From a virus (lineage: Duplodnaviria; Heunggongvirae; Uroviricota; Caudoviricetes), in IMG/VR virus record IMGVR_UViG_3300023174_000135: a DNA stretch of 64,000 bases; one strand, written 5' to 3'. A program made the position numbers and the translations under genes. This document shows, one piece after another, positions 4,645 through 64,000 of the stretch. Under the pieces are notes generated by a model. That model saw nothing but the letters and a program-made list of their open reading frames with translations, searched no databases and was not told the origin of the DNA. Within the stretch, counting starts at the first letter, position 1; each line of letters opens with the position of its first letter.

Positions 4645-4715
4645 TTATTATATATTAAAATTAAATATGTTAAACTTTATTTATTTTTAAAATAAAAATA
4701 AAAAACAAATTTTAT

Positions 4716-8060: not shown

Positions 8061-8139
8061 AGGGTAAAATTGGTGTTAGATATAATGTAGCTACTTCTGA
8101 GTCTATAAAAAACTCCTTTTAAATAAAATATATAAGACT

Positions 8140-17235: not shown

Positions 17236-17249
17236 CTATTTATATATTT

Positions 17250-17687: not shown

Positions 17688-17718
17688 ATTTTATATATTA
17701 AAAAGTTATAAACCAAAC

Positions 17719-20538: not shown

Positions 20539-20553
20539 TTTTTATATATTTTT

Positions 20554-22482: not shown

Positions 22483-22493
22483 ATCATATATAT

Positions 22494-26465: not shown

Positions 26466-27761
26466 TTAAATTTTAGATTTCATATATTTATCTGTTAAAT
26501 TTACTTTAACTGGGCAAAGCACTTGCCCGATATTGGCTGGTATAAATACATCACCAAATACTTTTCTTCCTATATTTAAGGAACCATTAACATCTGCATT
26601 TATTTTCAAACCTTTACTGGTTTTAAATAAGCCTCTTTTAATTCTTGTCCCTAAATAAGTGTCTTGTTTTTTAATTTGTTCTAAATCTAAACTCGAACAT
26701 TTAGAGGTGTAACTTTCTTCATGTGTTAGAACATTTATTCCTGCTAACTTACATTTATAAGTTAACATCTCTATAAACCTATGATAGGGGATAGATACAA
26801 ATGTTTGATTTAGTTTTTTACCAAGGTTAATTCCTTGTTTCCATTCTTTATTATATCCTATAGCTAATTCCTTTATCTTGTTATCTTTTAGAGAATCAAC
26901 TATTTTTTTAGATATTTTATGTAATTTATCGTTTATACGGTTATTTCTTTTTGTCGTTAATTTATTTATTTTTTCACTTTTATATACTTGTCTTAAGACC
27001 ATGTTACCTTCAGTATCTTTATACCACGAATGTTTAAATTCTTTATTTTGGTTAGGCAAAAATTTTTTATAATGTTCTAATTTTTTGTTATAAAATTTAT
27101 TAATGCTCTTAGACACTTTACCATTGTATATTTCAGTTAAACCTGAATCTGTTGTTAAAGTTGCTAAATTATTTATTCCTAAATCAATAGCTGCTTTACC
27201 ATTAAAATTATTTACTTCTTCTGGTTTTGTATAAATTATTTCTAAATTATAATGGCTTGTTTTTGGCACTATCCTTACCTGAAATAATTCATCCTGTGTT
27301 TTTATAGAAGTTTTAATTGGTTGGAGATTTAACTTCTTTGGAAAATGTATATAACCATCACGCACTTTTGAAACTTTTATGTCGCCTCTAATAACTACTA
27401 CATTTCTACCTTTTTCTTTATCTTTATACTTCATAAATTTAGGGCAACCAGTTAATTTCGTCTTATCTTTTTTCCAAAGGTTAATAAGACTTAAGAATGA
27501 TTTAACATTTTTATCAAATAACATAAGCACTTGTTGACTAACCGATGCGGTTAAAAGGTAATAATTATTATATTCATCTGGTTGTTCTTTCATTAACTTA
27601 TCCATATCTTTATATCTAATAAAATGACCGGTTTCTTTATAATTGGTATTAAATGTATATAATGCTTGATTATAAAGATTTTTAGAATGCCAACATAATG
27701 TATCACAGGCTTTCCAGTTAACATTTGTTTTATTTATTTGGTGGATTTCGGTTAAAATCAT
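26466..27761 (-). mobile_element. tnpB: TnpB-like (IS200/IS605 OrfB family RuvC-like) gene, solitary with no tnpA, zinc-finger cysteines degenerate
   Basis: RuvC-I AAIDLGINNLATLT, RuvC-II region IKELAIGYNKEW, C-terminal ESYTSKCSS...KINADVNGSLNIGRK (RuvC-III NADxNGAxNI); the CxxC...CxxC ligands are replaced (SKCSSLD / KTSKG); 4-bp and 17-bp gaps to neighbouring fibre genes. Confidence 0.75.
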
Positions 27762-27778
27762 AATTTGTATATATTAAA

Positions 27779-49261: not shown

Positions 49262-50518
49262 ATGGGAGTTTTTAATTTTTTCAAAAAACTATTATTTACC
49301 GAAGAAAATAAACCAATTTCTTCTCTTGATGAAGCTATCATCATTTCATGTTATTTCAATCCTATGAAATCACCATGGAGGCGAAAAGCCTTTGATACCT
49401 TTTTTGATGGTATCAAAGGTTTCAACTATAAAATTGTTGAATGTGTTATAGGTGACGGTGAGCCAGAATTGCCTGCAAATTTTGAAAAGGTGTATACGCA
49501 ATCTTTATTATGGCATAAAGAAACTTTGCTTAATAACATCATCAAAACTTTACCAGCAAAATATAAATATATTTTTTGGTTAGATGCTGATATAGTATTT
49601 ACTAATCCAAATTGGTTAGAAGAATCTGTTAATGTAATGAAAGCAGGCGCTAATATAATTCAACCATTTGAATTTTGTGTTCATCTTGAACAAGGAGAAT
49701 TAAAACCTTCTTTTAATGTTAATGCCTATAAAAGAGATTGTTCTAATCCAGTTTTAAGGCATAAAATGCTGTGGAGAAGTTTTTGTTCTAATCATGCATC
49801 TGGTATGAGTTCTAACATTAATTATGATGTTCATGGACATGTTGGATTAGCGTGGGGTATTAAACGAGAAGTCTATGATAAAATACCTGGTGGCTTATAT
49901 GATAAAGCGTTAATTGGTGGAGCCGATCATATAATGGCGCATGCAGCTGCAGGACATATAAATCATTCTTGTATTAAAAAATCATTCTCGGAAGATTTAG
50001 ATTCGGTTAATGATTATTCTAATAAAATGTATGCTGCTGTTGCTGGAAAAATTGGATTTACAACTGGTGATGTATATCATATATGGCATGGCGATTTAAA
50101 AGATAGACAATACTTAAAGCGTATTACAGAATTCACATCATCGGCAAAGAACATCAATAAAAGAGATGAAAATGGATTTTATATCAATGACAATTTAGAT
50201 GATATAAATTATATGAATAATTATTTTATGATTCGTGAAGTTGCTGACGAAGTTATAGATAAAATTGTAGATTCAGTAGAGTTTGGTGGTGGTCAATTTG
50301 GTGGTGGTGATGCATCAGGAAATTGGATAGATACTTCAACTGAAAACGACATACCTGGATTTATTCCAAATAATACATCTGTTTCAACTGATTATAGTGA
50401 TTTACCTGGATTTATTCCAAATGATACATCTGTTTCAACTGATTATAGTGATTTACCTGGATTTATTCCAAATAATACATCTGTTTCAACTGATTACCAA
50501 GGTAGCACTTTTTCTTAA
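49262..50518 (+). CDS. putative glycosyltransferase-like protein (DxD motif) with C-terminal 20-aa tandem repeats
   Basis: YIFWLDADIVFTNPNW (DxD after a beta-strand, as in GT-A fold enzymes); C-terminal IPGFIPNNTSVSTDYSDLPGF x3; start 2 nt after the ATPase stop. Confidence 0.4.
   Translation: MGVFNFFKKLLFTEENKPISSLDEAIIISCYFNPMKSPWRRKAFDTFFDGIKGFNYKIVECVIGDGEPELPANFEKVYTQSLLWHKETLLNNIIKTLPAKYKYIFWLDADIVFTNPNWLEESVNVMKAGANIIQPFEFCVHLEQGELKPSFNVNAYKRDCSNPVLRHKMLWRSFCSNHASGMSSNINYDVHGHVGLAWGIKREVYDKIPGGLYDKALIGGADHIMAHAAAGHINHSCIKKSFSEDLDSVNDYSNKMYAAVAGKIGFTTGDVYHIWHGDLKDRQYLKRITEFTSSAKNINKRDENGFYINDNLDDINYMNNYFMIREVADEVIDKIVDSVEFGGGQFGGGDASGNWIDTSTENDIPGFIPNNTSVSTDYSDLPGFIPNDTSVSTDYSDLPGFIPNNTSVSTDYQGSTFS
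50339..50500 (+). repeat. 60-bp tandem repeat x about 2.7
   Basis: acctggatttattccaaataatacatctgtttcaactgattatagtgattt repeated. Confidence 0.85.
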
Positions 50519-50573
50519 GAAAGTTTTAACTTTTAAATCTCAAAAATTTTTGCTATTTTTGTAAAAATTATTT

Positions 50574-50939
50574 ATGAAATCAATTTATCTTTTTCTTTTA
50601 AGTTTATTAGTTTTCACAAGTTGCAAAACTTCTAAATATGGTTGTCCTAATGTTGCAGAAATTAATCATGATTTAATCTATCGTTCTACTGGATATGTAG
50701 AAATGGTTGATACTGCTATCTTCATAAGATTATCTGATTGTGTTGTTATTAGCGATTCTAATGAGGTTTTAGAATATAATTTTTTAATGGTAAAGGGAAA
50801 ATTTGCTAACGATTTAAAACCATTTATTAATAAAACTATTCAATTTGAATTTACCAAATTTCCTGAAATTTCAGAATTTAAAGGAGATTTGGTTTATTCA
50901 AATTATGGTTGTATTGATAAAATATATCATAAATTTTAA
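50574..50939 (+). CDS. lipoprotein
   Basis: MKSIYLFLLSLLVFTSCKTS signal peptide plus lipobox; preceded by TATTTTTG at 50554-50561. Confidence 0.55.
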   Translation: MKSIYLFLLSLLVFTSCKTSKYGCPNVAEINHDLIYRSTGYVEMVDTAIFIRLSDCVVISDSNEVLEYNFLMVKGKFANDLKPFINKTIQFEFTKFPEISEFKGDLVYSNYGCIDKIYHKF

Positions 50940-50947
50940 AGATTTTT

Positions 50948-51499
50948 ATGAAGAAAAACTTTGGATATAAAATTGTAGATACTAAACCTTTACAAGAAGG
51001 TATTAGTTTTATATTAAACTTACCTAAAAAGAAATATAAGTTTGATAGAAAACATGCTTTGGCATCATTGGCTCAAACTAATACTAAATGTGTTTGTTGT
51101 GGAGTTGAGGGCACTAAATTTTGTTTAGGTGAAGATAAAGCAAAACAATTACATTGGGATTTTTATGCTAACGATGGGATTGCTTTAACAATTGATCATA
51201 TTTTACCAAAAGCAAAAGGTGGAACAAATGATTTTGAAAATCTGCAATTAATGTGTTTAGAATGTAATAATTTGAAAATGCATATACCTGAAAGAATTGT
51301 TGGGTATAAAAAACTTTTAGAATTATTAAATGGTAAATCAGAAGTTAAAGTAACACTTAAGAAAACCCCATTTATTCGTATTGATTATTGGAAAAAACTA
51401 TCTGATGAAATCTTCTTTGAGATACAAGATTTCTTTCATGAAGAAGAATTATTTGATGAGGATTGTGGATTTCAATATGTCTATTATTTTAAACATTAA
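50948..51499 (+). CDS. HNH endonuclease
   Basis: CVCCGVEG...LTIDHILPKAKGGTNDFENLQLMCLECNNLK is an HNH motif with Zn-binding Cys pairs. Confidence 0.7.
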   Translation: MKKNFGYKIVDTKPLQEGISFILNLPKKKYKFDRKHALASLAQTNTKCVCCGVEGTKFCLGEDKAKQLHWDFYANDGIALTIDHILPKAKGGTNDFENLQLMCLECNNLKMHIPERIVGYKKLLELLNGKSEVKVTLKKTPFIRIDYWKKLSDEIFFEIQDFFHEEELFDEDCGFQYVYYFKH

Positions 51500-51502
51500 A
51501 CT

Positions 51503-51787
51503 ATGAATTTATATTTAGTTGGATTTACACCTGATATGAAGATTTCATATTACCAAAAGTGGTTAGAAACTGACTCACTTTTGGAAATCAATAAGCATAT
51601 TATGAAAACTCCCTACAAAGATGATATTTGTTTCCCACTTCTTTCGTCTAATGATAAAGATAATTTATTAGAAACTGGTAAAACTATTTTATTATTTTCT
51701 GATTTATATTACTTCCTTGTAGATGTGAATAATGAAGAAAATACTGCGGTTATAAGACATATTAACATTGATAGAATTTTAAATTAA
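51503..51787 (+). CDS. hypothetical protein
   Basis: 94-aa ORF followed by a terminator. Confidence 0.45.
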   Translation: MNLYLVGFTPDMKISYYQKWLETDSLLEINKHIMKTPYKDDICFPLLSSNDKDNLLETGKTILLFSDLYYFLVDVNNEENTAVIRHINIDRILN

Positions 51788-51808
51788 TAATTAAACATAA
51801 CCAAAAAT

Positions 51809-51840
51809 AAAAACAGCAAACTTTTAGTTTGCTGTTTTTA
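51809..51840 (+). terminator. intrinsic terminator
   Basis: AAAACAGCAAAC-TTTTA-GTTTGCTGTTTTT. Confidence 0.7.
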
Positions 51841-51903
51841 TGCTTTAAAAAGTTATTTAACACATTTTTAAGTATCAAAATTTGCTCTGTAATCAAAATT
51901 TAG

Positions 51904-51911
51904 TATCTTTG
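51904..51911 (+). promoter_or_regulatory. putative -7 promoter box TATCTTTG with TTG about 19 nt upstream
   Basis: 18 nt upstream of the ATG at 51929; TTG at 51883-51885 gives Bacteroidota-like -33/-7 spacing. Confidence 0.35.
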
Positions 51912-51928
51912 TTTTGTAAGTAAAAACT

Positions 51929-52552
51929 ATGTCTAAAATCGTCAAAAAATCGCTAATCAATAACATTAATAATGATTATATTAATGCGATAAAGGATATT
52001 TATACGAGGAATTCGTTTATGACAGAATCGCAAACTGAATTAATTTGCACTCATACTATTTATGGTAAAGGTGTCGATTTTTATTTAAATTTTGTTAAAT
52101 CTGAAAGTTATGATTATAAAATTGGCGCTTGGTATTATTATAGGCAACAAAAAAATAGACGTTATAAAATAGTAATTACTTTAAATATATCAAATAATTT
52201 TTCATCAAAACATTATTCCGATATACACATAAGAATTAAGGCTTGCTTAATACATGAAATTGAACATCATCTACAAAGATTAAAAGCACCTACAAGAGAA
52301 CACTTACCCAGGAAAAACCATCCAACTCTTTTAGATTATGCTAACGCTCCTTCTGAATTAGAAGCCTGCCTAAAACACATATATTTTACTCACAAAAAAA
52401 CTGGAATATCATTTAATAAACTGATATTAGAAGAAGCAAATATACTTTCCGATGATGATGAGACTATACAAGATTTGTTTATAACAAACATAAGTAATTA
52501 TCTAATGCTCAGAAATGATCTAAATTTATTTAGAGGAATTAAGGGGTTTTAG
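51929..52552 (+). CDS. hypothetical protein
   Basis: 207-aa ORF. Confidence 0.5.
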   Translation: MSKIVKKSLINNINNDYINAIKDIYTRNSFMTESQTELICTHTIYGKGVDFYLNFVKSESYDYKIGAWYYYRQQKNRRYKIVITLNISNNFSSKHYSDIHIRIKACLIHEIEHHLQRLKAPTREHLPRKNHPTLLDYANAPSELEACLKHIYFTHKKTGISFNKLILEEANILSDDDETIQDLFITNISNYLMLRNDLNLFRGIKGF

Positions 52553-53042
52553 TTTTATTTTTAATCATTAATTGAACCGCTTGCATCATTTCTGATGAAT
52601 TTCCTTTTTTAATTACTTTTACTTTTGTTGGCATCCTAACTTCTTCGACGGTAGTTGGATATGAAGCCATAGCAACTGAACTATCATTATTCATTCTGGT
52701 AAGAGCCAATGCTTCAACATGAATTGGTTCAACATGAATTGTCTGTTCTGTTTTAACTATAAAAACGGTATCAGGTTTTATGTGTCTTAGCATTGAATCT
52801 ATCTTTAAATATCCTTCTGTTAAATCTTTTGTTTTCATAACCAAATCGGCATTTTGATTTATCAAACTTCCTTGTGAAGTTATGCATTGATTCAATTGTG
52901 TTTGAACTGGTGTTAAATCGGCATTTGTAAAATAAGATTTAATAAAAATTGCCGCTGTTATTGTTATTAATAACAAGACTAAAACCGTTAATCTTTGTTT
53001 AACGCTAAATGATTTTAAAATATCTGATACATTCTGAAACAT
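52539..53042 (-). CDS. membrane-anchored hypothetical protein
   Basis: N-terminal TM segment LTVLVLLLITITAAIFI. Confidence 0.5.
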   Translation of the reverse strand: MFQNVSDILKSFSVKQRLTVLVLLLITITAAIFIKSYFTNADLTPVQTQLNQCITSQGSLINQNADLVMKTKDLTEGYLKIDSMLRHIKPDTVFIVKTEQTIHVEPIHVEALALTRMNNDSSVAMASYPTTVEEVRMPTKVKVIKKGNSSEMMQAVQLMIKNKTKTP

Positions 53043-53172
53043 ATCCTATATATAATTTCTAAACGGAAAAAAATCGCTTAAATCATCAAACGCTTATACT
53101 ACTTGCTGTTTCACAATTCCTTAAACTTATATTTTATTTAAGAATACATAAAGTAATCAAAAAGAACACTTT

Positions 53173-53577
53173 ATGAATCAAGATAAAAACTATATAAGTG
53201 CTGATTTAGAAAATGAAATGCCCGCTTATTCAAGCAGTATTAGATTTACAGTATACGAATTTAAATTATGGGATAATCCTATCTATATATCCGTAGGAGA
53301 AAAGTTTTTAGATGGCAAAAAAGATATTACAGGATTGAATATGTGGAAAAATTTATTTGAGAGATTAAATAAAGGTGATAATTTAGACTTAGTAATTGAG
53401 GACTTTGTAGTTGACATTTTTAAGTATGAAAAAATGCCCTTTGTAAATCGGAAAGATATACTTTCATACTATGCCTCTAATAAAAGCATTTTTAATTTAA
53501 AAGTATTAGAGGATATAAAAACACTTTATAAAATTGCTTTAAGAGATAAAAATATAGATTCAATCTTAGGAGAATAA
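53173..53577 (+). CDS. hypothetical protein
   Basis: 134-aa ORF. Confidence 0.5.
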   Translation: MNQDKNYISADLENEMPAYSSSIRFTVYEFKLWDNPIYISVGEKFLDGKKDITGLNMWKNLFERLNKGDNLDLVIEDFVVDIFKYEKMPFVNRKDILSYYASNKSIFNLKVLEDIKTLYKIALRDKNIDSILGE

Positions 53578-53612
53578 AAAAAAAGAGCAACCTTTCGGTT
53601 GCTCTTTTGTAA
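53576..53612. terminator. bidirectional intrinsic terminator
   Basis: AAAAAAAAGAGCAACC-TTTC-GGTTGCTCTTTT between convergent genes. Confidence 0.7.
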
Positions 53613-53629
53613 AATTAAAGTTTGTAAAA

Positions 53630-54193
53630 TTATCTTAAAATAACAAGTCCAACACTACCACCTAGATTCCATATACTTTTGGAAAAGTTATTATCTATAT
53701 TCATTATTTGATCTGATAATGTTATTGATAATAAAACATGTTTATTAACAGTCAAACAAGGATTTATACCTATTTCTAATAAAGCATTTGGACCACCTTG
53801 CCATTTACTAACTAAAATTTTTGGCGCAGCATAAATCATATAACACACATTGCTATTTTGCCACAAACTTAAATAACCTTTAATTCCAACCCAAGTGCTT
53901 TTAAATGTAGCAATAGAAGCGGTATCACCCGAAGCAGTAATAGCATCTTGTTTTAAGAAATCAGCAACAATACCATAACTTGTTGGTTTATCTATTCCCC
54001 AAAATCCAGCTTCAGCAGACCAACCATAACAACCGCTTTGTAGCGTAGATTTGTTAAATACCGGGAAACCTATTCCAGGACCGCCATATACATAAGGCGT
54101 TCTTCCTTGTGTAAAAGAAGAATGATGTTTAGATTGTGCCGGAGCAGTAAAGCCAATAGTAAGGCTTAATAAAAGTAAGGCTACTTTTTTCAT
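53630..54193 (-). CDS. secreted or outer-membrane beta-rich protein
   Basis: Signal peptide MKKVALLLLSLTIGFTAPAQS; alternating-hydrophobicity strands; C-terminal aromatic residue. Confidence 0.5.
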   Translation of the reverse strand: MKKVALLLLSLTIGFTAPAQSKHHSSFTQGRTPYVYGGPGIGFPVFNKSTLQSGCYGWSAEAGFWGIDKPTSYGIVADFLKQDAITASGDTASIATFKSTWVGIKGYLSLWQNSNVCYMIYAAPKILVSKWQGGPNALLEIGINPCLTVNKHVLLSITLSDQIMNIDNNFSKSIWNLGGSVGLVILR

Positions 54194-54230
54194 AATTATT
54201 ATTGTTTGAAGATTAAAAAATTGATTTAAT

Positions 54231-54353
54231 TTATTTCTTTTTAAACCAGGAAACTACTTTGTTAATAACTAAGTAGCGAACTACTTCATAACAAGCAATT
54301 CCGAAAATTAATTCGGCTAAATGCCAACCGATAGAGAATGTAAATCCGTGCAT
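54231..54353 (-). CDS. unannotated 40-aa hydrophobic small ORF (MHGFTFSIGWHLAELIFGIACYEVVRYLVINKVVSWFKKK)
   Basis: Not in the ORF track; sits in the gap between two minus-strand genes; preceded by the same 15-mer as the next gene. Confidence 0.25.
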   Translation of the reverse strand: MHGFTFSIGWHLAELIFGIACYEVVRYLVINKVVSWFKKK

Positions 54354-54365
54354 ATATAAATTGAT

Positions 54366-54698
54366 TTAATTTTTTTCTTTTTTTTCTTTTATTTCTTTGT
54401 CATCTTGAAATGCCGAAGGCATTAATTCGATGTTATATTTTTTAGCAACTTTTATAATAAATGGCATCAAAATAGAAGCACCTGGTATTAAAACAAATGG
54501 TATTACCACACCAAATATTTTTAACCAATCAAATAGTTGAGTTTTTAAAATTTCTTCATCTTCATCACTTAATTCTTCGCCTGATAAATATTTTTTAATA
54601 ACACCGCCTGCTTCTTCTGTATTTTCCGCTTGTTCTTTTACGTTTTCTAAAAATAGTTTAATTTCTGTTTCAATTTTCTTTAATATTGCTATGCCCAT
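54366..54698 (-). CDS. hypothetical protein with C-terminal TM segment
   Basis: 110 aa; acidic N-terminus, FGVVIPFVLIPGASILMPFII hydrophobic segment. Confidence 0.45.
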   Translation of the reverse strand: MGIAILKKIETEIKLFLENVKEQAENTEEAGGVIKKYLSGEELSDEDEEILKTQLFDWLKIFGVVIPFVLIPGASILMPFIIKVAKKYNIELMPSAFQDDKEIKEKKEKN

Positions 54699-55371
54699 AT
54701 AAAAAGTGGTTGTCGTATAATTCTTGTTCTGTATATTGTTTGTCGTTATAAACGATTAAAAAATTAGGATATTTTGCTGTAAAATTTTTGAAATATTTTG
54801 AATCTAGCTTAGTATCATCTTCTAAAATGATTTCATGTTTACCAAACTTTTTTATTAATTTTAAACCTTCTTCTAATTGAAGAAAAACTTTTCCCATTTG
54901 AACATCTATTCCAAATTGTTTAAGTTTAACAAGTATTTCCTGCGAAGGTTTAAAAGGATTAAAAGGATTAACAGGGAAAAACTTATTTTTTAATTCGGCT
55001 ATTTCTTTTTTTGTAGAATGCCGATTTTCATACCTTTTAACTATTGTAAATCGGTCAGTTTTTTCATCATAAATACCTTTTGCCCAAGCATCTTGTGTTA
55101 TGTCTATATCTGTTTTGGCATGTAATTTATCTCCGGTTCTTTTTGCAAAAAAATTCCAATGATTAGAGTATCTTACAGTTTCATTTTCTGTGTAATTCCA
55201 ATCTTTTCGCTTGTTATAAAAACTAACCGAACAAGGCGATTTTTGAATATAATCTTCTGATAAAACATCATGCAAAACATCAATTGGAATCTGTTTCCAA
55301 TGCCCAATTTGTGTTTTCAACTCATTTTTTGTTAAAGGTTTTGTCCAATCTCTTTTTTTTCTTAGACCCAT
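54670..55371 (-). CDS. hypothetical protein
   Basis: 233-aa ORF. Confidence 0.5.
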   Translation of the reverse strand: MGLRKKRDWTKPLTKNELKTQIGHWKQIPIDVLHDVLSEDYIQKSPCSVSFYNKRKDWNYTENETVRYSNHWNFFAKRTGDKLHAKTDIDITQDAWAKGIYDEKTDRFTIVKRYENRHSTKKEIAELKNKFFPVNPFNPFKPSQEILVKLKQFGIDVQMGKVFLQLEEGLKLIKKFGKHEIILEDDTKLDSKYFKNFTAKYPNFLIVYNDKQYTEQELYDNHFLYGHSNIKEN

Positions 55372-55551
55372 AATGATATTTATAAAATAGATAATCAGCT
55401 AATTTAATTCCAAATATAGATGCTGCGATACAAACAGCTATGTATAATCCCCAAATATAATACAACATTTTTCATTTATTGTTATTTTGTTTCACAAAGA
55501 TACGATAATTTTTCATTTTCACAAAAAGAAAAAAGCTAAAACTAAGTTAAA

Positions 55552-55586
55552 AGAAAAAAAGCCACAATTTAATTGTGGCTTTTTTC
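55552..55586. terminator. intrinsic, probably bidirectional, terminator for the minus gene ending at 55608
   Basis: AAAAAAAGCCACAA-TTTAA-TTGTGGCTTTTTT. Confidence 0.7.
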
Positions 55587-55607
55587 ACAGTTTACTTTTA
55601 GTTTTAA

Positions 55608-56147
55608 TTAAGCAACTTCAACAGTAGCTTCGGTAGCAACTTCAGCAGTAGCTTTTTTTGCTCTTGGCTTACGAGGAGCTGGTTCTACGGTAAATGGAGT
55701 TTCCAACATTTCCCAAAGAGCTACACCACGTTCTGCTTCTGGTTTAGCAGCTTGTTCAGCGGTAAAGTTGTTAAGTAATTCGCTAACAACTTCCACATTA
55801 GCAGGAGATACAGCGATGTATCCACCCCATTTGGTGTCAACAACATTACCATCTGCTGTGCGGTGTTTTAAAGCGCCTTCTGCTTTACGGAAGCAAGCAA
55901 GAGGAAGTACATCTTCTTCACCATTGATACCAAAATTAACAAATTGGCGCCAGTGATTGTAAGAAACCAATGCAATCATAGTCAAAGGACCGGTGATGCG
56001 TTTTGGTTCTTTTTGTACTTTTTCTTTTGCAACACGCAACTTTGGAAGTGCTTTTGCTGAAATCTTAAAAGTAGTAACAGGAGCAGCATTTTCAACTGCG
56101 GCTGTCGGAGCGATTGTGGCATTTTCTGCCTGTGGATTTTTAGCCAT
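55608..56147 (-). CDS. Ala-rich hypothetical protein, compositional outlier (about 43% GC)
   Basis: 179-aa ORF; markedly higher GC and different codon choice than its neighbours; TAATTTTG box upstream on the minus strand at 56196-56203; its own terminator. Confidence 0.6.
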   Translation of the reverse strand: MAKNPQAENATIAPTAAVENAAPVTTFKISAKALPKLRVAKEKVQKEPKRITGPLTMIALVSYNHWRQFVNFGINGEEDVLPLACFRKAEGALKHRTADGNVVDTKWGGYIAVSPANVEVVSELLNNFTAEQAAKPEAERGVALWEMLETPFTVEPAPRKPRAKKATAEVATEATVEVA

Positions 56148-56544
56148 ACGACTTGTTTTTAAAAATGTTTAAAAGTTAATAAACTAATTGAAAAGCAAAA
56201 TTACAACTTCATTTTTATTTGGCAAACTTTTTTTAGTTAAAAGTTTGTTAATCTAATTTTGTGTTTTTACATTCAATCTTTAATTAGAGTGCAAAGATAC
56301 AATCTTTTTTGAAACTGGCAAATTTTTTGTAAAAATTTTTTTCAATTTTTTTTGCTCTTATTAAAAACTGCTATAAATACTCAAAGAACTTGTTATAATT
56401 GCTTGTTTCTCAATTACGATGTAAAATTACACAAAAAAATTAAACTGGCAAACTTTTTTTCAAAAAATTTTTAAAAAAACTTTTAATTAAAAATAATTAT
56501 AGAGATAATAATTATTTTATATATAATGAAAAATAAAAATTGAT
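56148..56544. promoter_or_regulatory. 400-bp AT-rich divergent intergenic hub with 3 copies of (A)CTGGCAAA(C/T)TTTTTT and a 9-bp inverted repeat
   Basis: Motif copies at about 56217, 56311 and 56444; CAAACTTTT...AAAAGTTTG palindrome at 56220-56245; minus-strand TATCTTTG at 56292-56299. Confidence 0.4.
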
Positions 56545-57777
56545 ATGAAATTAATTAAACTGATACAAGATAATTTTAAAAATTATAGCAATTCTATTAA
56601 TAGTTTTGCACCACAGGTTTTTACACTTACAACGGATAAGCTAAAATCAATAAAAGAATTAAAACATTGTGATGAATTTAGTAATGTGGAATTAAGAATA
56701 GTTGATAAATCGGAAATATCTGATAAAATGGAAACATACAAAATTTCTGATTTCTACAATTCTTTACCTTTTTCAGGTAAAATAGGTATATTTTATTTAT
56801 ATCAAATAAATACAGTTGATTTTAAATCATTTGATATAAGAGGATTTTTTAAAACTGAATCTATACAAAGATTTTATTATGGACATGATATAGACGGTTT
56901 AACATCTCTACAAAAAGATACTGTTGCTGAATTGATAAAAAAAATTAACACACTACATATTACACATGATTATATTGATAATAGAATAATGGATTTTAAA
57001 AAAGAAAACATAGCATTTAACGCTATATCAAATATGGAAGAAAATGTTACTTTTGATGGTAAAAATTTTGTTTTAAATAAAAAAGATGGAACAAAAGAAA
57101 ATTTTTACAGTATTGAGGAAGAAACTGCAAAAAAAGAAAATATAAAACCACCTTCATATTCTACAATTGAGGATGAAATGTTGATATTAGAAAAAACAAT
57201 CGATGAATGTGATGGATTAGATGAAGAACAAATTATATCTATTAAGGAAAAGATTAAAACATTTGAATCTAAATTAAAAGATAAAATTAAACCTAAAACG
57301 ATTACAATTTCCTCTTTAGTACACAATAAAATTAAAAATTATTGCAATACATTTGGATTAAAAATTGGTGATTGGGTCGAGGAAACTTTATTAAATGCAC
57401 TTGATTGTAGTGATAAAACTTCTACTAAAAAACAATCACAAGAAGAATGGTTAGAAGAAAGTAAAGATGAATTATTAAAAAAATGGCGAGAATATCAAAA
57501 AATTAATAAACTAATTAAAACAGAATATCTAATTCTAAAACCTAAATTTAAATTTAAAGGATTTTCAATTGTAGATCATAAACCTTTATATGATTATCTT
57601 GGAACTGATAAAGAATTAGAAAGAGATTTACAAACAATTAAATGTAAAATTTATTTAACCATTGATAAAAGAGAATTAAATAATGTAACTTATTTAGAAC
57701 AATTTGCTAATTTACCAGTTGAAGGAATTGATGTTAATTTACCAGAAGAAGAAGTTGATTTAGAAAAATTAACCTAG
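56545..57777 (+). CDS. hypothetical protein (410 aa)
   Basis: Long ORF followed by a terminator. Confidence 0.5.
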   Translation: MKLIKLIQDNFKNYSNSINSFAPQVFTLTTDKLKSIKELKHCDEFSNVELRIVDKSEISDKMETYKISDFYNSLPFSGKIGIFYLYQINTVDFKSFDIRGFFKTESIQRFYYGHDIDGLTSLQKDTVAELIKKINTLHITHDYIDNRIMDFKKENIAFNAISNMEENVTFDGKNFVLNKKDGTKENFYSIEEETAKKENIKPPSYSTIEDEMLILEKTIDECDGLDEEQIISIKEKIKTFESKLKDKIKPKTITISSLVHNKIKNYCNTFGLKIGDWVEETLLNALDCSDKTSTKKQSQEEWLEESKDELLKKWREYQKINKLIKTEYLILKPKFKFKGFSIVDHKPLYDYLGTDKELERDLQTIKCKIYLTIDKRELNNVTYLEQFANLPVEGIDVNLPEEEVDLEKLT

Positions 57778-57823
57778 GAAGGACTTAAAAAATTAATTAA
57801 TATATTATCTGGCAATCGTAAAT

Positions 57824-57852
57824 AAAAAAATCCGCTTTAAGCGGATTTTTTT
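57824..57852 (+). terminator. intrinsic terminator
   Basis: AAAAAAATCCGC-TTTAA-GCGGATTTTTTT. Confidence 0.7.
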
Positions 57853-57868
57853 ATTTTATATATATTTT

Positions 57869-58180
57869 ATGAAATATTTGTGTTTATTTGAAAGGCTTTT
57901 TATTTCTAAATCAAATATAGAAGGCGAAGGTTTATTTAGCACATCGGATATACCTTCTGGAAAACTTATTTGTCAAATAGCTAATTTAGAAAAATTTGAT
58001 AAAACTGAAAAATGGATAAATGAATGGGGTCATAAAATAAATCATTCAGATAAACCAACTGCTGAAGTTGAGATATTTGGGAGCAAATGTTTTATTAAAG
58101 CAATAGAACATATAAGCCCCGGAGAAGAAATAACAACTGACTATAAAACTATACCAAATTTCTTTAATAAGAAAATTTAA
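57869..58180 (+). CDS. minimal SET-domain protein (putative protein-lysine methyltransferase, 103 aa)
   Basis: GEGLFSTSDIPSGKLI (GxG SAM-binding start), INHSDKP (NHSxxPN), GEEITTDY (ELTxDY) in canonical order; no pre- or post-SET Cys clusters. Confidence 0.6.
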   Translation: MKYLCLFERLFISKSNIEGEGLFSTSDIPSGKLICQIANLEKFDKTEKWINEWGHKINHSDKPTAEVEIFGSKCFIKAIEHISPGEEITTDYKTIPNFFNKKI

Positions 58181-58182
58181 TT

Positions 58183-58641
58183 TTATCTTTTAATAAATTT
58201 ATTTAATTCGTAGAAATTATTAATCAATAAGATTGATGAAACTATTTTTCCTTCTATTCTTTTTATCCTTAAATCAATTGATTCTATTTTAACAGCATAA
58301 TTAGACCATTTACCACCATATTTTTTGTAATTGAAATTATTATATACTATATCACCAACAGTAAAAATAGTTCCGTTACATTTACATGAATTAATTAACA
58401 TCTCTAATTTATCTTGATCTTTAACAAAATAATTTAATAAATTATTATTCAATTCTAAAATTGAATTATCCGAATTAATTAATGATAAAATTAAAGCATT
58501 AGAAGGTAGCAATGCCTTTGATGATTTAAACTCATCAACAATTGCCATATCTGTTTCAGCTCCTAATTTGTTTTTTAGTAATTCTAATACTAGTTCGTCA
58601 GTCCAGTAAATTTCCATTTTATTAAATTTGAGTATTTCCAA
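58183..58641 (-). CDS. hypothetical protein
   Basis: 152-aa ORF overlapping the upstream SPFH gene by 20 nt. Confidence 0.45.
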   Translation of the reverse strand: MEILKFNKMEIYWTDELVLELLKNKLGAETDMAIVDEFKSSKALLPSNALILSLINSDNSILELNNNLLNYFVKDQDKLEMLINSCKCNGTIFTVGDIVYNNFNYKKYGGKWSNYAVKIESIDLRIKRIEGKIVSSILLINNFYELNKFIKR

Positions 58642-59167
58642 TAATTCTTATTGTTTTGATTAAAGCTAAATCACTTAAAGTTATTTTTTCAACTTTAATT
58701 CCCCATTCTGATAAAATTTCCTGGGCTTTTTGTGTGGCATCTTCTTCAATACCATCTAAAACTTCTTCCCAATCTAAATTTTTAACAGAATTGTTAATTA
58801 TACCTTGAACAGTATCACCTATTGCATCATGTGCATCCCAAACTTTTAAAGTATAGTCTTGAATGTTATCGATGTGGAATCTAACAATAGCTTTAACAAC
58901 AACACTTTTATCATCTTTGGTAGTAAGTGTTTGTGGATTTAAATGTGTTGTTTGTGTAACCGTAAAACATTGATAGACCGAATCTGCAAAAGGCATTTTA
59001 AAATAAATACCACCTTTGACAACTCTATGAAATTTACCAAATCTTAAAATACAGGCAGATTCCATTTCGGATACAATAATCCAAAAAACTAATTCATTCC
59101 AAATTGTTTTAATTAACTCAAATAATTTATCGAACATAAAGCAAAGATACAAAAAAATAATTGACAA
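58622..59167 (-). CDS. SPFH/band-7 (stomatin/prohibitin-like) domain protein
   Basis: N-terminal TM, then ESACILRFGKFHRVVKGGIYFKMPFADSV...VVVKAIVRFHIDNIQDY...AQEILSEWGIKVEKITLSDL is collinear with the SPFH consensus. Confidence 0.65.
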   Translation of the reverse strand: MSIIFLYLCFMFDKLFELIKTIWNELVFWIIVSEMESACILRFGKFHRVVKGGIYFKMPFADSVYQCFTVTQTTHLNPQTLTTKDDKSVVVKAIVRFHIDNIQDYTLKVWDAHDAIGDTVQGIINNSVKNLDWEEVLDGIEEDATQKAQEILSEWGIKVEKITLSDLALIKTIRIIGNTQI

Positions 59168-59196
59168 AAAAAATTTTAATTTTAACTTTTTTTTCG

Positions 59197-59204
59197 TATT
59201 TTTG
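59197..59204 (+). promoter_or_regulatory. putative -7 promoter box TATTTTTG (context cgtatttttgtaaaag) with TTGACA-like element upstream
   Basis: 32 nt upstream of the ATG at 59236. Confidence 0.3.
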
Positions 59205-59235
59205 TAAAAGAAAGTAAAATTAAATTAAACTAAAA

Positions 59236-59499
59236 ATGTATATTAAAAAAGTTAAAACTGATAAAACACATAAATGGGTTTTATGTGATGAAAAAAATGA
59301 ACTTCGTATTATTGGCAATGAAACATTATTAAAAAAATTAGAAAATTTAGAACTTGGTTCTTATGATTTTCTATTTAATGAAGAAATGCTTGTGCAATGG
59401 AGATTGAGAAGCACAAAATTGGAATTTACAGATAGATTTTTAGAATCACCAGAAGCATGGGTTAGGCATATTAAAATTAATGACATCCTAAAAGATTAA
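59236..59499 (+). CDS. hypothetical protein
   Basis: 87-aa ORF followed by a terminator. Confidence 0.45.
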   Translation: MYIKKVKTDKTHKWVLCDEKNELRIIGNETLLKKLENLELGSYDFLFNEEMLVQWRLRSTKLEFTDRFLESPEAWVRHIKINDILKD

Positions 59500-59527
59500 A
59501 AGACGATCTAATGATCGTCTTTTTTTT
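59498..59527 (+). terminator. intrinsic terminator
   Basis: AAAAGACGATC-TAAT-GATCGTCTTTTTTTT. Confidence 0.75.
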
Positions 59528-59538
59528 ATATATACCTT

Positions 59539-60213
59539 ATGCAACATTTACTTTCTTTTGGATTATTTGAAAATAAAACTGATACATTTTATGGCTATAA
59601 AATAGTTGCTTATGATGGTGAACGCTATTATTCTCTTTATAGTAAACAAACTTTAAACCTTGTAATAGGGGAAACAATTAGTTTTGGTGGAGAAGGTTTA
59701 TTTTTAGGCTCAACACCTGAATTTTGTATTGATTATTACGCTGGTGGTACAGATGATCAAGATGCTTTATTAAAATTTGAATTTAATAAAAATGATATAA
59801 TAAAAGGTGATATAGATGATTACATAAAACACGGAACAAGTGGTGAAATTCAAGTTCGTAAAGCAAAATTGGTAGATATAAAATTACTTGATTTAGATAC
59901 AAATACAATACTTGAATCTCATAAAGAAAAATTAGGCAATTTATGTGAAATTAAAATTAATTTTCCGGAAGCAGATTTTTGGCTTCAAAGAAATGGCGCA
60001 ATTGAAAATGTTGGCAAACCACATAAAAAATTTTTTGCGGATGACATTGGAGTTAAAGTTATTGCCACAGATATAATTGATACTAACTATTTGTTTTATT
60101 ATTTAACTTATTTACATTCATTAGGCGAATTTGGTAAGTTAGCATCTTATACAACCAAATTACATCATATTAGAGTTTCGGATATTAAAAATTTAACCCT
60201 AAACTTTCGATAA
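59539..60213 (+). CDS. hypothetical protein
   Basis: 224-aa ORF; C-terminal half faintly resembles a type I restriction S-subunit target-recognition fold; not claimed. Confidence 0.45.
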   Translation: MQHLLSFGLFENKTDTFYGYKIVAYDGERYYSLYSKQTLNLVIGETISFGGEGLFLGSTPEFCIDYYAGGTDDQDALLKFEFNKNDIIKGDIDDYIKHGTSGEIQVRKAKLVDIKLLDLDTNTILESHKEKLGNLCEIKINFPEADFWLQRNGAIENVGKPHKKFFADDIGVKVIATDIIDTNYLFYYLTYLHSLGEFGKLASYTTKLHHIRVSDIKNLTLNFR

Positions 60214-60234
60214 AAAAAGTTTATAAAGTTATAT

Positions 60235-61080
60235 ATGTCTGAGAACAAAAAACCCAAAAAAGTCAAAAAAACCAAAAAAAAATCACATAAAAAAGAATTA
60301 CCTAATAAATGTATTGTATGTGGTAAGCCTTGCCGCAGAATGTTTTGCTGCGCTAAATGTAAATTTGCGGATTTTAAAAAAAGAAGATCAGTAAATAATT
60401 GTCTTATATGCGGAAAACCTTGCACTAATCTTTATTGCTCAACAACTTGTTCTGGCATAGATAATATCAAAGAAGCATACAAAGCAACTTGCGAATTTTG
60501 CGGAAAAGAATTTACCTACAAAATACCAGCATATAAAAAAAGAGGACAAATGCGGTTTTGCTCCTATAAATGCAAATCCTCTAAGTATATTATTAATGAT
60601 AACTTTTTCAAAGGCTCAGATAATATCCCTCAGATATATCAAACAATGGGATTTATATTTGCGGCTGGTGTAATAATGGATATCAAATTAGGAATAATTG
60701 ATTTAATTGCTGAAGAAGAAAAATTAAAAAAAATAGCCGCTGCAATGAATTCAACTTATAAAATCCAAAAAACCGATAATAACTTATATAGAACTTATAT
60801 AAGAAGTAATGAAATTACAGATTATTTATTTGATTTAGGATTTACCTCAACACATGAAACTCATCAATTTCCAACTATTTTACCTGAATATAAATTAGAT
60901 TTTATTAAAGGTTTTGCATCAGTTAACTCGGAATTACATCAAAATGATGAAATAATGTTTGTAAAAATTAAAAGTTATTCAATAGCAAGAGAAATAGCCG
61001 AAATATTACAATGTGAATTAGTTACCAAACATTTAGGATTTATTTGTATAGTGCGTGATCCGAAAATTTTAAGTTTGTAA
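60235..61080 (+). CDS. zinc-ribbon-rich basic protein (5 CxxC pairs) with possible degenerate LAGLIDADG-like C-terminal half
   Basis: CIVCGKPC, CCAKCK, CLICGKPC, CSTTCSG, CEFCGKEF, CSYKCK; later GFIFAAGVIMD and KGFASVNS weakly resemble paired LAGLIDADG helices. Confidence 0.5.
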   Translation: MSENKKPKKVKKTKKKSHKKELPNKCIVCGKPCRRMFCCAKCKFADFKKRRSVNNCLICGKPCTNLYCSTTCSGIDNIKEAYKATCEFCGKEFTYKIPAYKKRGQMRFCSYKCKSSKYIINDNFFKGSDNIPQIYQTMGFIFAAGVIMDIKLGIIDLIAEEEKLKKIAAAMNSTYKIQKTDNNLYRTYIRSNEITDYLFDLGFTSTHETHQFPTILPEYKLDFIKGFASVNSELHQNDEIMFVKIKSYSIAREIAEILQCELVTKHLGFICIVRDPKILSL

Positions 61081-61084
61081 AACT

Positions 61085-61462
61085 TTATTTTGTAAAATTA
61101 TCCTTTGTAATTTCATGCTTTATTTCTAAAGTATCAGCATCTACCAAATAAACAGGTATATTATTTTGGAGAGCAACTTTAATTTCATCTGAAACTCCGG
61201 TGGAAATATTCCAACCTTCTAAATCAAGAACATATAATTTTTCAGATGCTAAAACATATTGTCTACAAAAATTATCCCAAAATTCATATGAATCAGGTAA
61301 ATTTTGTCCAGACTTTTCAATTAAAGTTAAACCAAAAAGTAATGGTGATACCGGAATGTTACCAGATTTTGTAACAAGTAAACAAGCATCAACAAGTTTT
61401 TTTATACGAAATTTTTTAACCGCTTCATCTTTTGATGAATACGGTGCAGATAACATTATCAT
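61085..61462 (-). CDS. hypothetical protein, possibly DUF1937 / nucleoside 2-deoxyribosyltransferase-like fold
   Basis: MIMLSAPYSSKDEAVKKFRIKKLVDACLLVTKSGNIPVSPL resembles the N-terminal pattern of that family; weak. Confidence 0.35.
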   Translation of the reverse strand: MIMLSAPYSSKDEAVKKFRIKKLVDACLLVTKSGNIPVSPLLFGLTLIEKSGQNLPDSYEFWDNFCRQYVLASEKLYVLDLEGWNISTGVSDEIKVALQNNIPVYLVDADTLEIKHEITKDNFTK

Positions 61463-61638
61463 TTTCCAGTTTTTACTTGTCTTAAATTATTTGCCCAAGA
61501 ATTAAAATCAACTTTTTCATCTGGCATACAAGTTGATTTTATCCGCAATTCGCCAATTTTTGGATAATTAGCTGACATACCTTTGGCTGTCTCACCAGTA
61601 AATACTTGTGATAATTTTGATAGAAATTTTTTTACCAT
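61459..61638 (-). CDS. unannotated 59-aa ORF translationally coupled on both sides
   Basis: Its start overlaps the upstream stop (ATGGTAA) and its stop overlaps the downstream ATG (ATGATAATG). Confidence 0.3.
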   Translation of the reverse strand: MVKKFLSKLSQVFTGETAKGMSANYPKIGELRIKSTCMPDEKVDFNSWANNLRQVKTGK

Positions 61639-61892
61639 AATTTTATTTTTTCTTTATCCAAAAAAGGATATTTGTTCAGATATTGCCATTTTATTTTTTC
61701 AGCTTCTTCATCGGTTTGATGAAATAAATCACATATTAAATCTTGATATATGTCCTCTATATCAGACTCAGTGCGTTCCGGTAATTCATAACCAGATGCC
61801 CAACATTCAGGTTTTTCCATAATAAAATTGTAATTAAGATTTGAATCTCCAAATAATACCAATACAATCTTCACCATACCATATTTCACCAA
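61632..61892 (-). CDS. hypothetical small protein
   Basis: 86-aa ORF in the coupled minus-strand run. Confidence 0.4.
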   Translation of the reverse strand: MVKYGMVKIVLVLFGDSNLNYNFIMEKPECWASGYELPERTESDIEDIYQDLICDLFHQTDEEAEKIKWQYLNKYPFLDKEKIKLW

Positions 61893-62166
61893 CTTGTATA
61901 TTTTCGTTGGCGTAATTATTACGCCAAATTAGATGTCCCATTTTTTCAAGTTGTTCTAATTCGTGTGTATGTTGTGAATGAGGACAATACTCAATTGGTT
62001 GTCCGTTAAATCTGGATTGTAATTGTTCTAAAGCCCACTCTTGTTTAGTATCAAAACAAATTAAATGATACCAAAATATATTAGACAGATGTTGTCTATC
62101 CATTGTTTCAGTAGCAATTTCTCTTCCGTTAAAAGTTGTCCAAACTTTTTTATCAGTGCTTAACAT
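61834..62166 (-). CDS. hypothetical protein (His-rich)
   Basis: 110-aa ORF. Confidence 0.4.
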   Translation of the reverse strand: MLSTDKKVWTTFNGREIATETMDRQHLSNIFWYHLICFDTKQEWALEQLQSRFNGQPIEYCPHSQHTHELEQLEKMGHLIWRNNYANENIQVGEIWYGEDCIGIIWRFKS

Positions 62167-62275
62167 TTATTTTTTCTTTTAACAAAGATAAGAAGAAAAA
62201 GCGAAAAAACAAAAACAGAATTGTTAATAACTTTTAACACATTAAAATTAATTAATATATAAAAATAAAATTATT

Positions 62276-62530
62276 ATGCTAACCGTTCAAATTAATCCCG
62301 TTCAAATAATGAACCAACAAGGAACTCAATTATCTACTTATATAATCCATTATGATTTGGATGCACAAAACTGCACTACATTTTGGATGTTAAAAGATGC
62401 AAATGGCAATCGTCTTTATGAAGGAAATTACAATATACCTGCCGATGTTTTAACAAATTGGGGTTCAGATGATAATGTAATTATACAGGCTGTTGCTGAT
62501 GGTTTGGGCTTTACTATTATCACAGAATAA
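62276..62530 (+). CDS. hypothetical small protein
   Basis: 84-aa ORF ending at a bidirectional terminator. Confidence 0.4.
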   Translation: MLTVQINPVQIMNQQGTQLSTYIIHYDLDAQNCTTFWMLKDANGNRLYEGNYNIPADVLTNWGSDDNVIIQAVADGLGFTIITE

Positions 62531-62563
62531 AAAAAAAACTGCTCAATTTTGAGCAGTTTTTTT
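62531..62563. terminator. bidirectional intrinsic terminator
   Basis: AAAAAAAACTGCTCAA-TT-TTGAGCAGTTTTTTT between convergent genes. Confidence 0.75.
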
Positions 62564-62610
62564 ATTGCTTATCTAAGCAAGCAAATTGATTTTTAAGCGA
62601 AATTTGATAC

Positions 62611-63321
62611 TTAAAAAAGCGTTTTATAGTAGTTTATTTCTTTTTTTGCTTGAATGTTTGATAATATGGATTTTTGATATTCTCCAGGTAAGTCATAAAC
62701 TTTTTTTATAGCTTTATGAATTTCAAATTCCGTCATAATAGCATCATTAATATCTTCCATACCTAACTTTTTTAGAACAATTGTATACATATCACTTTCA
62801 TCCGCTGATATCATATATTTCGTTATATATTCATTTCTTTCTTTTTCTGAAATGTTTTTAATACCACCGTGTTTTTTAATAATTTCCGCATAACAATTAT
62901 AGTATGCTACAATACTAGCAATATCTCTGCAAAAATCTTGTGTCCATAATTTATTAGTATCAGAATACATAAGGTCTAATATATTATCATTTATTAGACC
63001 ATATAATTGCTGCCTTTCAGTATACTTATCTTTATCACCAATGAATTGTATGCGATTATTTTCAACAAAGAATAATTCTTTTGGACGATTTTTGGTATTA
63101 ATAATTTTTAATGCTTCTTCTTTGGTAAGAAATGTAAAATTATTAGCATTAAACTTATTGATTTGATAATTAACTATTTTATTTTTATCATAGTTAAGAA
63201 ATCTATAAGAATTATTCCAAGCCCATAATTTGAATATACCAATATCACCTTTTTTATTTAGAGCGAATTGATTATGCATTTTATCTGCATCAATTATAGC
63301 ATTAAACTTTGTTTGTATCAT
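62611..63321 (-). CDS. hypothetical protein
   Basis: 236-aa ORF. Confidence 0.5.
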   Translation of the reverse strand: MIQTKFNAIIDADKMHNQFALNKKGDIGIFKLWAWNNSYRFLNYDKNKIVNYQINKFNANNFTFLTKEEALKIINTKNRPKELFFVENNRIQFIGDKDKYTERQQLYGLINDNILDLMYSDTNKLWTQDFCRDIASIVAYYNCYAEIIKKHGGIKNISEKERNEYITKYMISADESDMYTIVLKKLGMEDINDAIMTEFEIHKAIKKVYDLPGEYQKSILSNIQAKKEINYYKTLF

Positions 63322-63362
63322 ACCTGATTTTTTTATTGTTAAAACTTAAAGCGATGAGTAAA

Positions 63363-63845
63363 TTAGTCACCGCCTCCACCACCGTCTCCACCTCCGCCGT
63401 CTCCACCTCCGCCGTCACCACCTCCACTATCACCTCCGCTATCACCGCTACCTTCGCTACTTTCAGAACCACCTTCAGCATCTGCTGTTTCATTTCCATT
63501 TTCTGTTGAATTAGCTTCCATATCACTTTCAACTTCTGCCGGAAGTTCTGTTTCGCTAATTTCCTGTTCTGGTTGTTCTTCGGCATTTGCAGGAACTGGT
63601 TTTGATGCTGCTGATGTCCATGCTGCATTGCTAAAATTAGTAACTGGTGTTGGTGATGAATATGTATAAGATGAATTGCCGTTATCAGAGTTAATAACAT
63701 ACCAATAGATGAAATCATCATCTATTAATTCTGTTAATTCTCCTTTTTCGTTAGGAACCGTATATACATGAACTTTTTGTTTATGTTTGTGTCCAACACA
63801 ACCAACAAATAAAAATAAACTTAATAATACTAATAGATGTTTCAT
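63363..63845 (-). CDS. lipoprotein with Gly/Asp-rich C-terminal low-complexity tail
   Basis: MKHLLVLLSLFLFVGCVG signal peptide plus lipobox; C-terminal (GGGD)n encoded by a GC-rich ccgcctccacc repeat. Confidence 0.5.
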   Translation of the reverse strand: MKHLLVLLSLFLFVGCVGHKHKQKVHVYTVPNEKGELTELIDDDFIYWYVINSDNGNSSYTYSSPTPVTNFSNAAWTSAASKPVPANAEEQPEQEISETELPAEVESDMEANSTENGNETADAEGGSESSEGSGDSGGDSGGGDGGGGDGGGGDGGGGGD

Positions 63846-64000
63846 AATTTTTCTTTTTATTTTTTAATGTTTACCTATTTCTTTTTCTGAATGTCCGCAA
63901 CCATGATTGGCTGTTTTTTCGTGCAAGTAATCTATAATTGCTAAGATTAAAGCGCCTAAAAGAAATATACTATGTATGATTAATTGATTTTTTAAAATTT

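Follow-up and report, generated by a model that had tools for sequence, protein, structure and literature searches.

The SET gene and its phage

The 64,000-nucleotide stretch of phage DNA analyzed here (the window) contains a short gene for a protein with the landmarks of the SET domain, preceded by a terminator-like hairpin and an ATATATA box (Table 1). An earlier note on this DNA, made from the letters alone, had described a 103-residue stand-alone SET protein lacking Cys-rich pre- and post-SET domains, and this description holds: the reading frame runs from ATG to TAA as claimed, the SET domain spans residues about 9-95, and the protein has only three Cys residues, which are scattered (positions 5, 35 and 74). 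The three motifs quoted in that note, GEGLFSTSDIPSGKLI, INHSDKP and GEEITTDY, occur in the order given there.

Table 1. Features of the SET locus, of the window and of relatives
Feature	Position	Strand	Remarks
Intrinsic-terminator-like hairpin	57820..57856	+	A-run, stem ATCCGC/GCGGAT, T-run
ATATATA box of the SET gene	57858..57864	+	Ends 4 nt before the SET ATG; candidate phage promoter/start signal
SET-domain protein gene	57869..58180	+	ATG start, TAA stop; 103 aa, 11.9 kDa, pI 6.3
GEGLFSTSDIPSGKLI	57923-57970 (residues 19-34)	+	Quoted SET landmark
GxG (G19-E20-G21)	57923..57931	+	SET motif I for the SAM pocket; aligns to MLL1 'HGRGLF'
H55-K56-I57-N58-H59-S60-D61-K62-P63-T64	58031..58060	+	SET motif III; NHSxxPN type, T64 replacing N
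INHSDKP	58037-58057 (residues 57-63)	+	Quoted SET landmark
G85-E-E-I-T-T-D-Y92	58121..58144 (residues 85-92)	+	SET motif IV with catalytic-type Tyr
KTIPNFFNKKI	58145..58177	+	C-terminal flap; 11 residues after Y92, in the post-SET place
Tail and tail-fibre gene block	12155-41603	-	Annotation; collagen-like segments
ATATATA boxes, minus strand	4649-4655, 17241-17247, 17692-17698, 20543-20549, 22487-22493, 27768-27774, 41608-41614, 53047-53053	-	
ATATATA boxes, plus strand	8128-8134, 57858-57864, 59528-59534	+	
Giant protein P0026 of a relative	L012 10001-14254		Terminal SET module
Giant protein P0038 of a relative	L005 5134-10992		Terminal SET module
Giant protein P0031 of a relative	L013 1401-6770		Terminal SET module

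The window is AT-rich (GC 23 to 34%, mostly near 28%), and no tRNA genes were found in it. Besides the tail and tail-fibre block, it encodes RNase H and an exonuclease. A transposase gene (26466-27761, minus strand, 431 aa; phrog_506, E=1.8e-46) lies inside the tail-fibre block between giant structural genes, and homing/HNH endonuclease genes are found at 3646-4644 (-), 43563-44405 (+) and 50948-51499 (+); GIY-YIG genes are carried by relatives too. A gene for a MazG-like pyrophosphatase (4716-5267, plus strand) adjoins one for a ribose-phosphate pyrophosphokinase (PRPP synthase)-like protein (5650-6807, plus strand), and the two are auxiliary genes of nucleotide or NAD metabolism.

In a tblastn search with the window peptidase, the best relatives were full-length matches of 47-50% identity in LR745206 and LR756501-4, which are uncultured phages of 634-735 kb. 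The proteins of 41705-42922 (+) and 47899-49260 (+) are 41-53% identical to proteins of these same 'Mahaphage' genomes, and the best relative of the latter, a 453-aa protein, is in LR756502. Megablast of positions 50000-64000 against GenBank phages gave no match. Four contigs carry the identical SET protein, and one of the four falls in the 0.2-1 Mb class; this exact match, together with the 634-735 kb relatives, places the window in a huge phage. The phage context that had been assumed is confirmed by the tail-fibre genes, the homing endonucleases and best relatives among phages of 0.63-0.74 Mb.

What is the likely host of this phage? At the gene starts of the window, a Shine-Dalgarno-like sequence is seen for only 4 of 57 long open reading frames, and such scarcity fits a host from the Bacteroidota, where initiation is Shine-Dalgarno-independent. 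In size, LR745206 and LR756501-4 match the top four genomes reported by Al-Shayeb et al. (2020), which fall in the 'Mahaphage' clade, with predicted replication in Bacteroidetes (PMC7162821). A host from the Bacteroidota is therefore probable.

The SET gene itself lies outside the structural block, within an accessory region of small open reading frames, and its neighbours are unannotated reading frames, a Band_7/SPFH protein and a DUF1937/nucleoside-deoxyribosyltransferase-like protein. The Band_7/SPFH gene (58622-59167, minus strand; Pfam E=2.3e-22) adjoins the SET locus, and the syntenic relative L004 has a longer Band_7 gene elsewhere in its genome. In the phage that encodes the relative P0003, the SET gene overlaps by 4 nt a downstream 85-aa reading frame (L001 4264-4521, plus strand), whose signal, MKRLLLLSVLLFSC, is of the lipoprotein type. 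None of the genes in the window points to a substrate, and a comparison of the SET loci of relatives revealed no informative conserved neighbour.

Signals upstream of the SET gene

The hairpin upstream of the SET gene has a stability of -18.4 kcal/mol (z -3.66), which was equalled by none of 200 shuffled sequences, and the region contains three terminator-like sites where 0.3 would be expected. It is located 43 nt past the stop codon of the gene at 56545..57777 and 12 nt ahead of the SET ATG, and its distance from that stop argues that it is the terminator of the upstream gene. This is a convincing intrinsic terminator that would end transcription of 56545..57777 and keep read-through from reaching the SET gene. 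In L004, the equivalent place is occupied by a hairpin whose stem differs (GCAACC/GGTTGC). A scan around the SET gene found no terminator downstream of it, and the stop codon of a convergent gene lies just 2 nt beyond the SET stop. The proposal that the SET gene has its own terminator upstream and is a discrete transcription unit was therefore only partly correct: the hairpin is real and lies upstream of the gene, but it belongs to 56545..57777, and there is no terminator after the SET gene to complete the unit.

The ATATATA box is a likelier start signal for the SET gene than is the hairpin. ATATATA with an ATG at +4 to +6 occurs at 11 places in the window, often in the context (T/A)AATATATA(A/T), and opens reading frames of 89-939 aa. 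Five of the genes so marked belong to the tail-fibre block (16540, 17250, 17719, 20554 and 39498); others are a homing-endonuclease-like gene, the transposase gene and other non-structural reading frames. The SET ortholog of L004 is likewise preceded by a hairpin, a T-run, ATATATA and 4 nt before the ATG; at the level of sequence comparison, this arrangement is conserved between the window and L004 beyond the letters themselves. Elsewhere in the window, a bidirectional terminator hairpin (59498-59523) is followed by a T-run, the box at 59528-59534, 4 nt and an ATG at 59539 that opens a 224-aa reading frame, the same upstream layout as at the SET gene. ATATATA may be a phage-specific promoter or start signal that yields leaderless or near-leaderless mRNAs. 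No Shine-Dalgarno sequence was found upstream of the SET ATG, and a sigma-70 promoter scan around the gene detected 27 candidates against 28.6 expected, none of them placed to serve it.

Authenticity of the gene and assignment to the SET family

One could argue that a short reading frame with no Shine-Dalgarno sequence, starting 12 nt past a terminator, is spurious, or that it resembles SET by chance in AT-rich sequence. However, the Shine-Dalgarno sequence is nearly absent from all genes of the window, and the reading frame has the evolutionary signature of a real gene. The ortholog in L004 is 80% identical in amino acids and 81% in nucleotides, with a Nei-Gojobori dN/dS of 0.10 at a dS of about 1.0, and the reading frame is thus under purifying selection. 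In addition, the SET gene keeps the same syntenic position in relatives. (A 126-aa gene call in the relative P0001 was rejected because its N-terminal extension crosses the sequence corresponding to the terminator hairpin.) Taken together with the Pfam match and the confidently predicted fold described below, these results already refute the view that the gene is spurious or the match fortuitous, a view to which we attach a negligible probability.

The profile search called for in the earlier note recovered SET by three routes, namely Pfam, a family profile against the PDB, and hhalign. The protein matches Pfam SET (PF00856) with E=1.3e-12 and 48.4 bits, against a gathering score of 22.4. As a single sequence searched against the PDB, it matches MLL-type SETs at E of about 1e-3 (MLL2, 0.0016) and the chlorovirus enzyme vSET at 0.07. 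The protein was then combined with its three close homologs into a profile for an exhaustive HMMER scan of 1.84 billion cluster representatives, which yielded 692 clusters at E<=1e-3; among the 152 proteins fetched from the best 150 of these 692 clusters, 75 are stand-alone proteins of at most 145 aa. A family profile built from 73 short relatives among the scan matches aligned over the full length with the MLL1 SET (4.5e-16) and with PBCV-1 vSET (1.9e-12) in the PDB, and hhalign against vSET gave a probability of 98.3% and E=1.4e-14, covering vSET residues 3-108.

An AlphaFold model computed from the 73-sequence alignment has a pLDDT of 90.5 and a pTM of 0.82. Its top PDB match in Foldseek is vSET (3kma_A; E=2.9e-7, TM 0.68), and the best 50 of 254 PDB matches at E<=1e-3 are all SET or PR-domain structures, including MLL1-4, NSD1/2, ASH1L, EZH2, SETD2, Clr4 and PRDM12. 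In the model, the SET (beta-clip) fold is present in this 103-aa protein. With vSET as the best structural match, 'viral-type minimal SET' is a fair structural description.

Conserved motifs and missing parts

Motif III of the protein, the motif that in SET domains forms the pseudoknot and contacts SAM, aligns to RFINHSCEPN of MLL1 and IFNHSKDPN of vSET, and motif IV aligns to GEELTYDY and GEEITISY of the same two enzymes. The 73 relatives are highly diverse, with a mean column identity of 18%, and their only invariant positions are G21, N58, E87 and Y92; S15, I17, G19 and H59 are each more than 90% conserved (G19 in 71 and H59 in 72 of the 73). The NH pair (N58, H59) and the Tyr (Y92), on which the original assignment had been staked, are thus invariant or nearly so. 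The conserved set of SAM and catalytic residues comprises G19/G21, H55-K56, N58-H59, E87 and Y92.

Other parts of the canonical domain are reduced or lacking. Pairwise and profile alignments to MLL1 place I37-A-N39 at motif II (YxG), where many SET enzymes have a tyrosine that lines the lysine channel, and this position is not conserved across the 73-relative family. When the protein is aligned to MLL-type SETs, no aromatic residue is found at the F/Y-switch position after NHSxxPN. Position 64 is N in 64 of the 73 relatives and T in seven, as it is in the window protein. The SET-I insert is severely truncated: hhalign reveals a deletion of 15 vSET residues, leaving about 14, and this deletion explains why the protein is 16 aa shorter than vSET. 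As a consequence of the deletion, a complete lysine channel is not guaranteed.

Is the protein then a degenerate SET-like module, which binds a protein or a lysine-containing peptide without methyl transfer? The severe truncation of SET-I points in that direction, as do the absence of the motif II Tyr and of an aromatic residue aligned at the switch position, and a Thr (T64) where the PN motif normally has N. Yet the residues that stay invariant across 73 divergent relatives are the cofactor and catalytic residues G19/G21, N58/H59, E87 and Y92, and it is difficult to see what need a binding-only module would have of them. Moreover, vSET is active and also has no motif II Tyr, so this residue is not strictly required for SET activity. 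Given that invariance is confined to residues for SAM and catalysis, we rate a non-catalytic role as quite improbable.

The 11 residues after Y92 offer one possible substitute for the missing post-SET region. P96 is present in 61 of the 73 relatives, position 99 is F, I or L, and a hydrophobic or aromatic residue at 98/99 is conserved in the family; the AlphaFold model has a pLDDT of 84 for residues 91-100 and 49 for residues 101-103. We infer that this tail, with P96 and F98-F99, stands in for the post-SET flap.

Phage-borne relatives of the SET protein

Close relatives of the protein are few. A word-indexed protein search found only three close homologs, and identities above 60% are limited to a handful of metagenome contigs. 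A profile search with the close homologs gave no match in IMG/VR or GTDB genomes, and tblastn against GenBank phages produced three weak matches only, none of them in the related megaphages. The wider family, as sampled by the HMMER scan, places the window protein in what appears to be a phage-borne clade of SET modules of about 90-110 aa.

Members of this family also occur fused to other domains. The ortholog P0004 (L004 10001-10600, 199 aa) has SET fused to a short GNAT acetyltransferase domain, with Pfam Acetyltransf_1 and Acetyltransf_7 both above cut-off; no GNAT remnant or second SET copy was found within the window. In 56 of the 152 fetched proteins, the SET module ends in YRxQP(D/E)LEQP, and such modules are usually N- or C-terminal in proteins of 0.4-2.4 kaa, sometimes with two per protein. 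Some of these giants carry YkuD L,D-transpeptidase, L-Ala-D-Glu-peptidase-like or tail-protein segments. P0026 (1417 aa), for example, has YkuD near its N-terminus and SET at its C-terminus, and its gene, carried by a contig of 112 kb, comes three genes after those for the crAss Ring_2, Ring_1 and muzzle proteins, on their downstream side. In PhiCrAss001, the region downstream of the Ring and muzzle genes encodes ejected cargo proteins (PMC10172136). A literature search did not find a paper describing SET modules in giant proteins near crAss Ring/muzzle genes; its single match for crAss-like phages and a SET domain was dismissed, since the wording concerned a 'C2-set' immunoglobulin domain. 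A search for the QPDLEQP-type module turned up 74 viral contigs in IMG/VR and no match among 185,579 species-representative genomes of bacteria and archaea (GTDB).

Possible functions

The predicted fold and the conserved residues make an active SAM-dependent protein methyltransferase the most likely identity of the 103-aa protein. Stated in full, the explanation that we regard as probable is that it is a stand-alone, catalytically competent SET enzyme, most probably lysine-specific, of a huge tailed phage whose host probably belongs to the Bacteroidota. Lysine is taken as the target residue by default; enzymes of the SET fold can methylate histidine as well, as SETD3 does. By analogy with solved SET enzymes, GxG and NH would hold SAM on one side of the protein, the substrate side chain would come in through a narrow channel that opens on the other side, and methyl transfer would take place next to Y92. 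With SET-I cut to about 14 residues and the post-SET region absent, the substrate groove must be completed by other means, and candidates are the P96/F98-F99 flap, vSET-like self-association, or the substrate itself.

Which protein would such an enzyme modify? The earlier note had proposed, as conjectures, a host nucleoid protein, a ribosomal protein or a virion protein. A host protein is the favoured candidate, with a probability that we put a little short of even. Two observations argue for it: sister modules reside in proteins that are probably injected, and an ortholog is fused to GNAT, which places a second amine-modifying enzyme beside SET. A point against this reading is that the cargo-protein argument draws on gene position in a different phage lineage (crAss-like).

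Alternatively, the active enzyme could act late in infection on the phage's own capsid, tail-fibre or other virion proteins, with lysine methylation serving, for example, to protect against proteolysis or to tune adsorption. The SET gene has its box in common with tail-fibre genes, which leaves a virion substrate among the candidates and could point to late expression: ATATATA located 4-6 nt before five genes of the tail-fibre block suggests co-expression with structural genes, and related SET modules are built into giant proteins associated with the virion. However, the box also precedes non-structural genes and need not mark late genes, the SET gene is in the accessory region of small reading frames rather than in the structural block, and no conserved structural neighbour was seen across relatives. 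We consider a phage or virion substrate rather unlikely.

A broader proposal would account for the solo, GNAT-fused and giant-protein forms together. Perhaps the SET modules of about 90-110 aa form a phage-restricted clade of host-takeover effectors, either delivered with the virion or made on infection. Each would methylate a specific protein of its probably Bacteroidota host, be it nucleoid-associated, a factor of translation or one of defence. We offer this as a speculative model, on balance rather doubtful as a complete statement.

Significance

SET enzymes have been studied almost wholly as eukaryotic chromatin modifiers or as pathogen effectors directed against eukaryotic histones. The window encodes a conserved, selected and very small predicted SET enzyme in a phage that infects a host without histones, and its family is seen in viral contigs, in no species-representative bacterial genome, and sometimes inside virion-associated giants. 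Should the protein prove active, it would mean that phages methylate lysines of bacterial or virion proteins, a modification little explored in phage-host conflict, and a SET core of 90-100 residues would become available for studying the minimum needs of the fold. If the modules are indeed effectors, this would be the first phage-directed lysine methylation of bacterial proteins, and its catalyst would be the smallest SET unit known. As it stands, the result is a well-supported annotation of a known domain.

Phage SET-domain genes as such are already known: UniProt and PHROGs contain annotated examples, as does at least one paper on a phage genome. The features that distinguish the present protein, as predicted, are the SET-I deletion, which makes it smaller than vSET, the conserved P-x-(F)-F tail, and membership, in a huge phage, of a clade seen in viral contigs but in none of the species-representative bacterial genomes. 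At 103 residues it appears to be one of the smallest SET-domain enzymes seen. Literature searches on function, anti-defence, huge phages and crAss-like phages found no functional study of any phage SET protein.

Comparison with known systems

The closest structural counterpart is vSET (A612L of Paramecium bursaria chlorella virus 1; PDB 1n3j/3kma), a 119-aa histone H3K27 methyltransferase. Each of the two is a stand-alone SET core encoded by a virus and free of pre- and post-SET domains, their GxG, NHS..P and GEEIT.(S/D)Y motifs align, and both are without the motif II Tyr. Their identity is only about 23-27%, however, and the window protein is no closer in sequence to vSET than to MLL-type SETs, which speaks against a specific kinship with the chlorovirus enzyme: vSET ranks first only in the structural ranking, whereas its profile match (1.9e-12) is behind that of MLL1 (4.5e-16). 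The vSET substrate H3K27 is excluded for the window protein, since the host of a bacteriophage has no histones; this exclusion does not extend to the vSET mode of action. The MLL/KMT2-type SETs (MLL1; PDB 5f5e and 2w5y) are the best PDB matches by sequence and profile, with motifs I, III and IV aligned, but they have about 30 more SET-I residues, a Cys-rich post-SET domain and WRAD partners, and the window protein has none of the three.

Among phages, SET proteins from uncultured Caudovirales and other viral bins (A0A6J5PTS6, A0A6J5L8Y2, A0A218ML49 and A0A481YSP5) share the predicted fold. The best BFVD matches are already named 'SET domain' (E=4e-8 to 1e-6, TM up to 0.80), and the PHROG matches, phrog_28741 and phrog_34170, are weak. 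ORF62 of Stenotrophomonas phage Ps15 is an annotated phage SET-domain protein (PMC9025141). These catalogued phage SETs, whether UniProt entries, PHROGs or Ps15 ORF62, come with no described function or substrate. In a survey of the polyvalent proteins of phages and plasmids, SET is not among the domains given (PMC5512222). The window protein differs from polyvalent or cargo proteins in being a solo protein of 103 aa; only its relatives are embedded in large proteins.

The remaining counterparts are cellular. In work by Manzur & Zhou (2005) and Murata (2007), Go1-SET of Methanosarcina reportedly acts on MC1-alpha and a chlamydial SET on Hc1/Hc2. Prokaryotic SET enzymes that methylate non-histone DNA-associated proteins provide a precedent, and have been reviewed (PMC10117894). 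Go1-SET, the chlamydial SET and the secreted effectors (BaSET and others) are all products of cellular genes, while the SET protein of the window is phage-borne and smaller.
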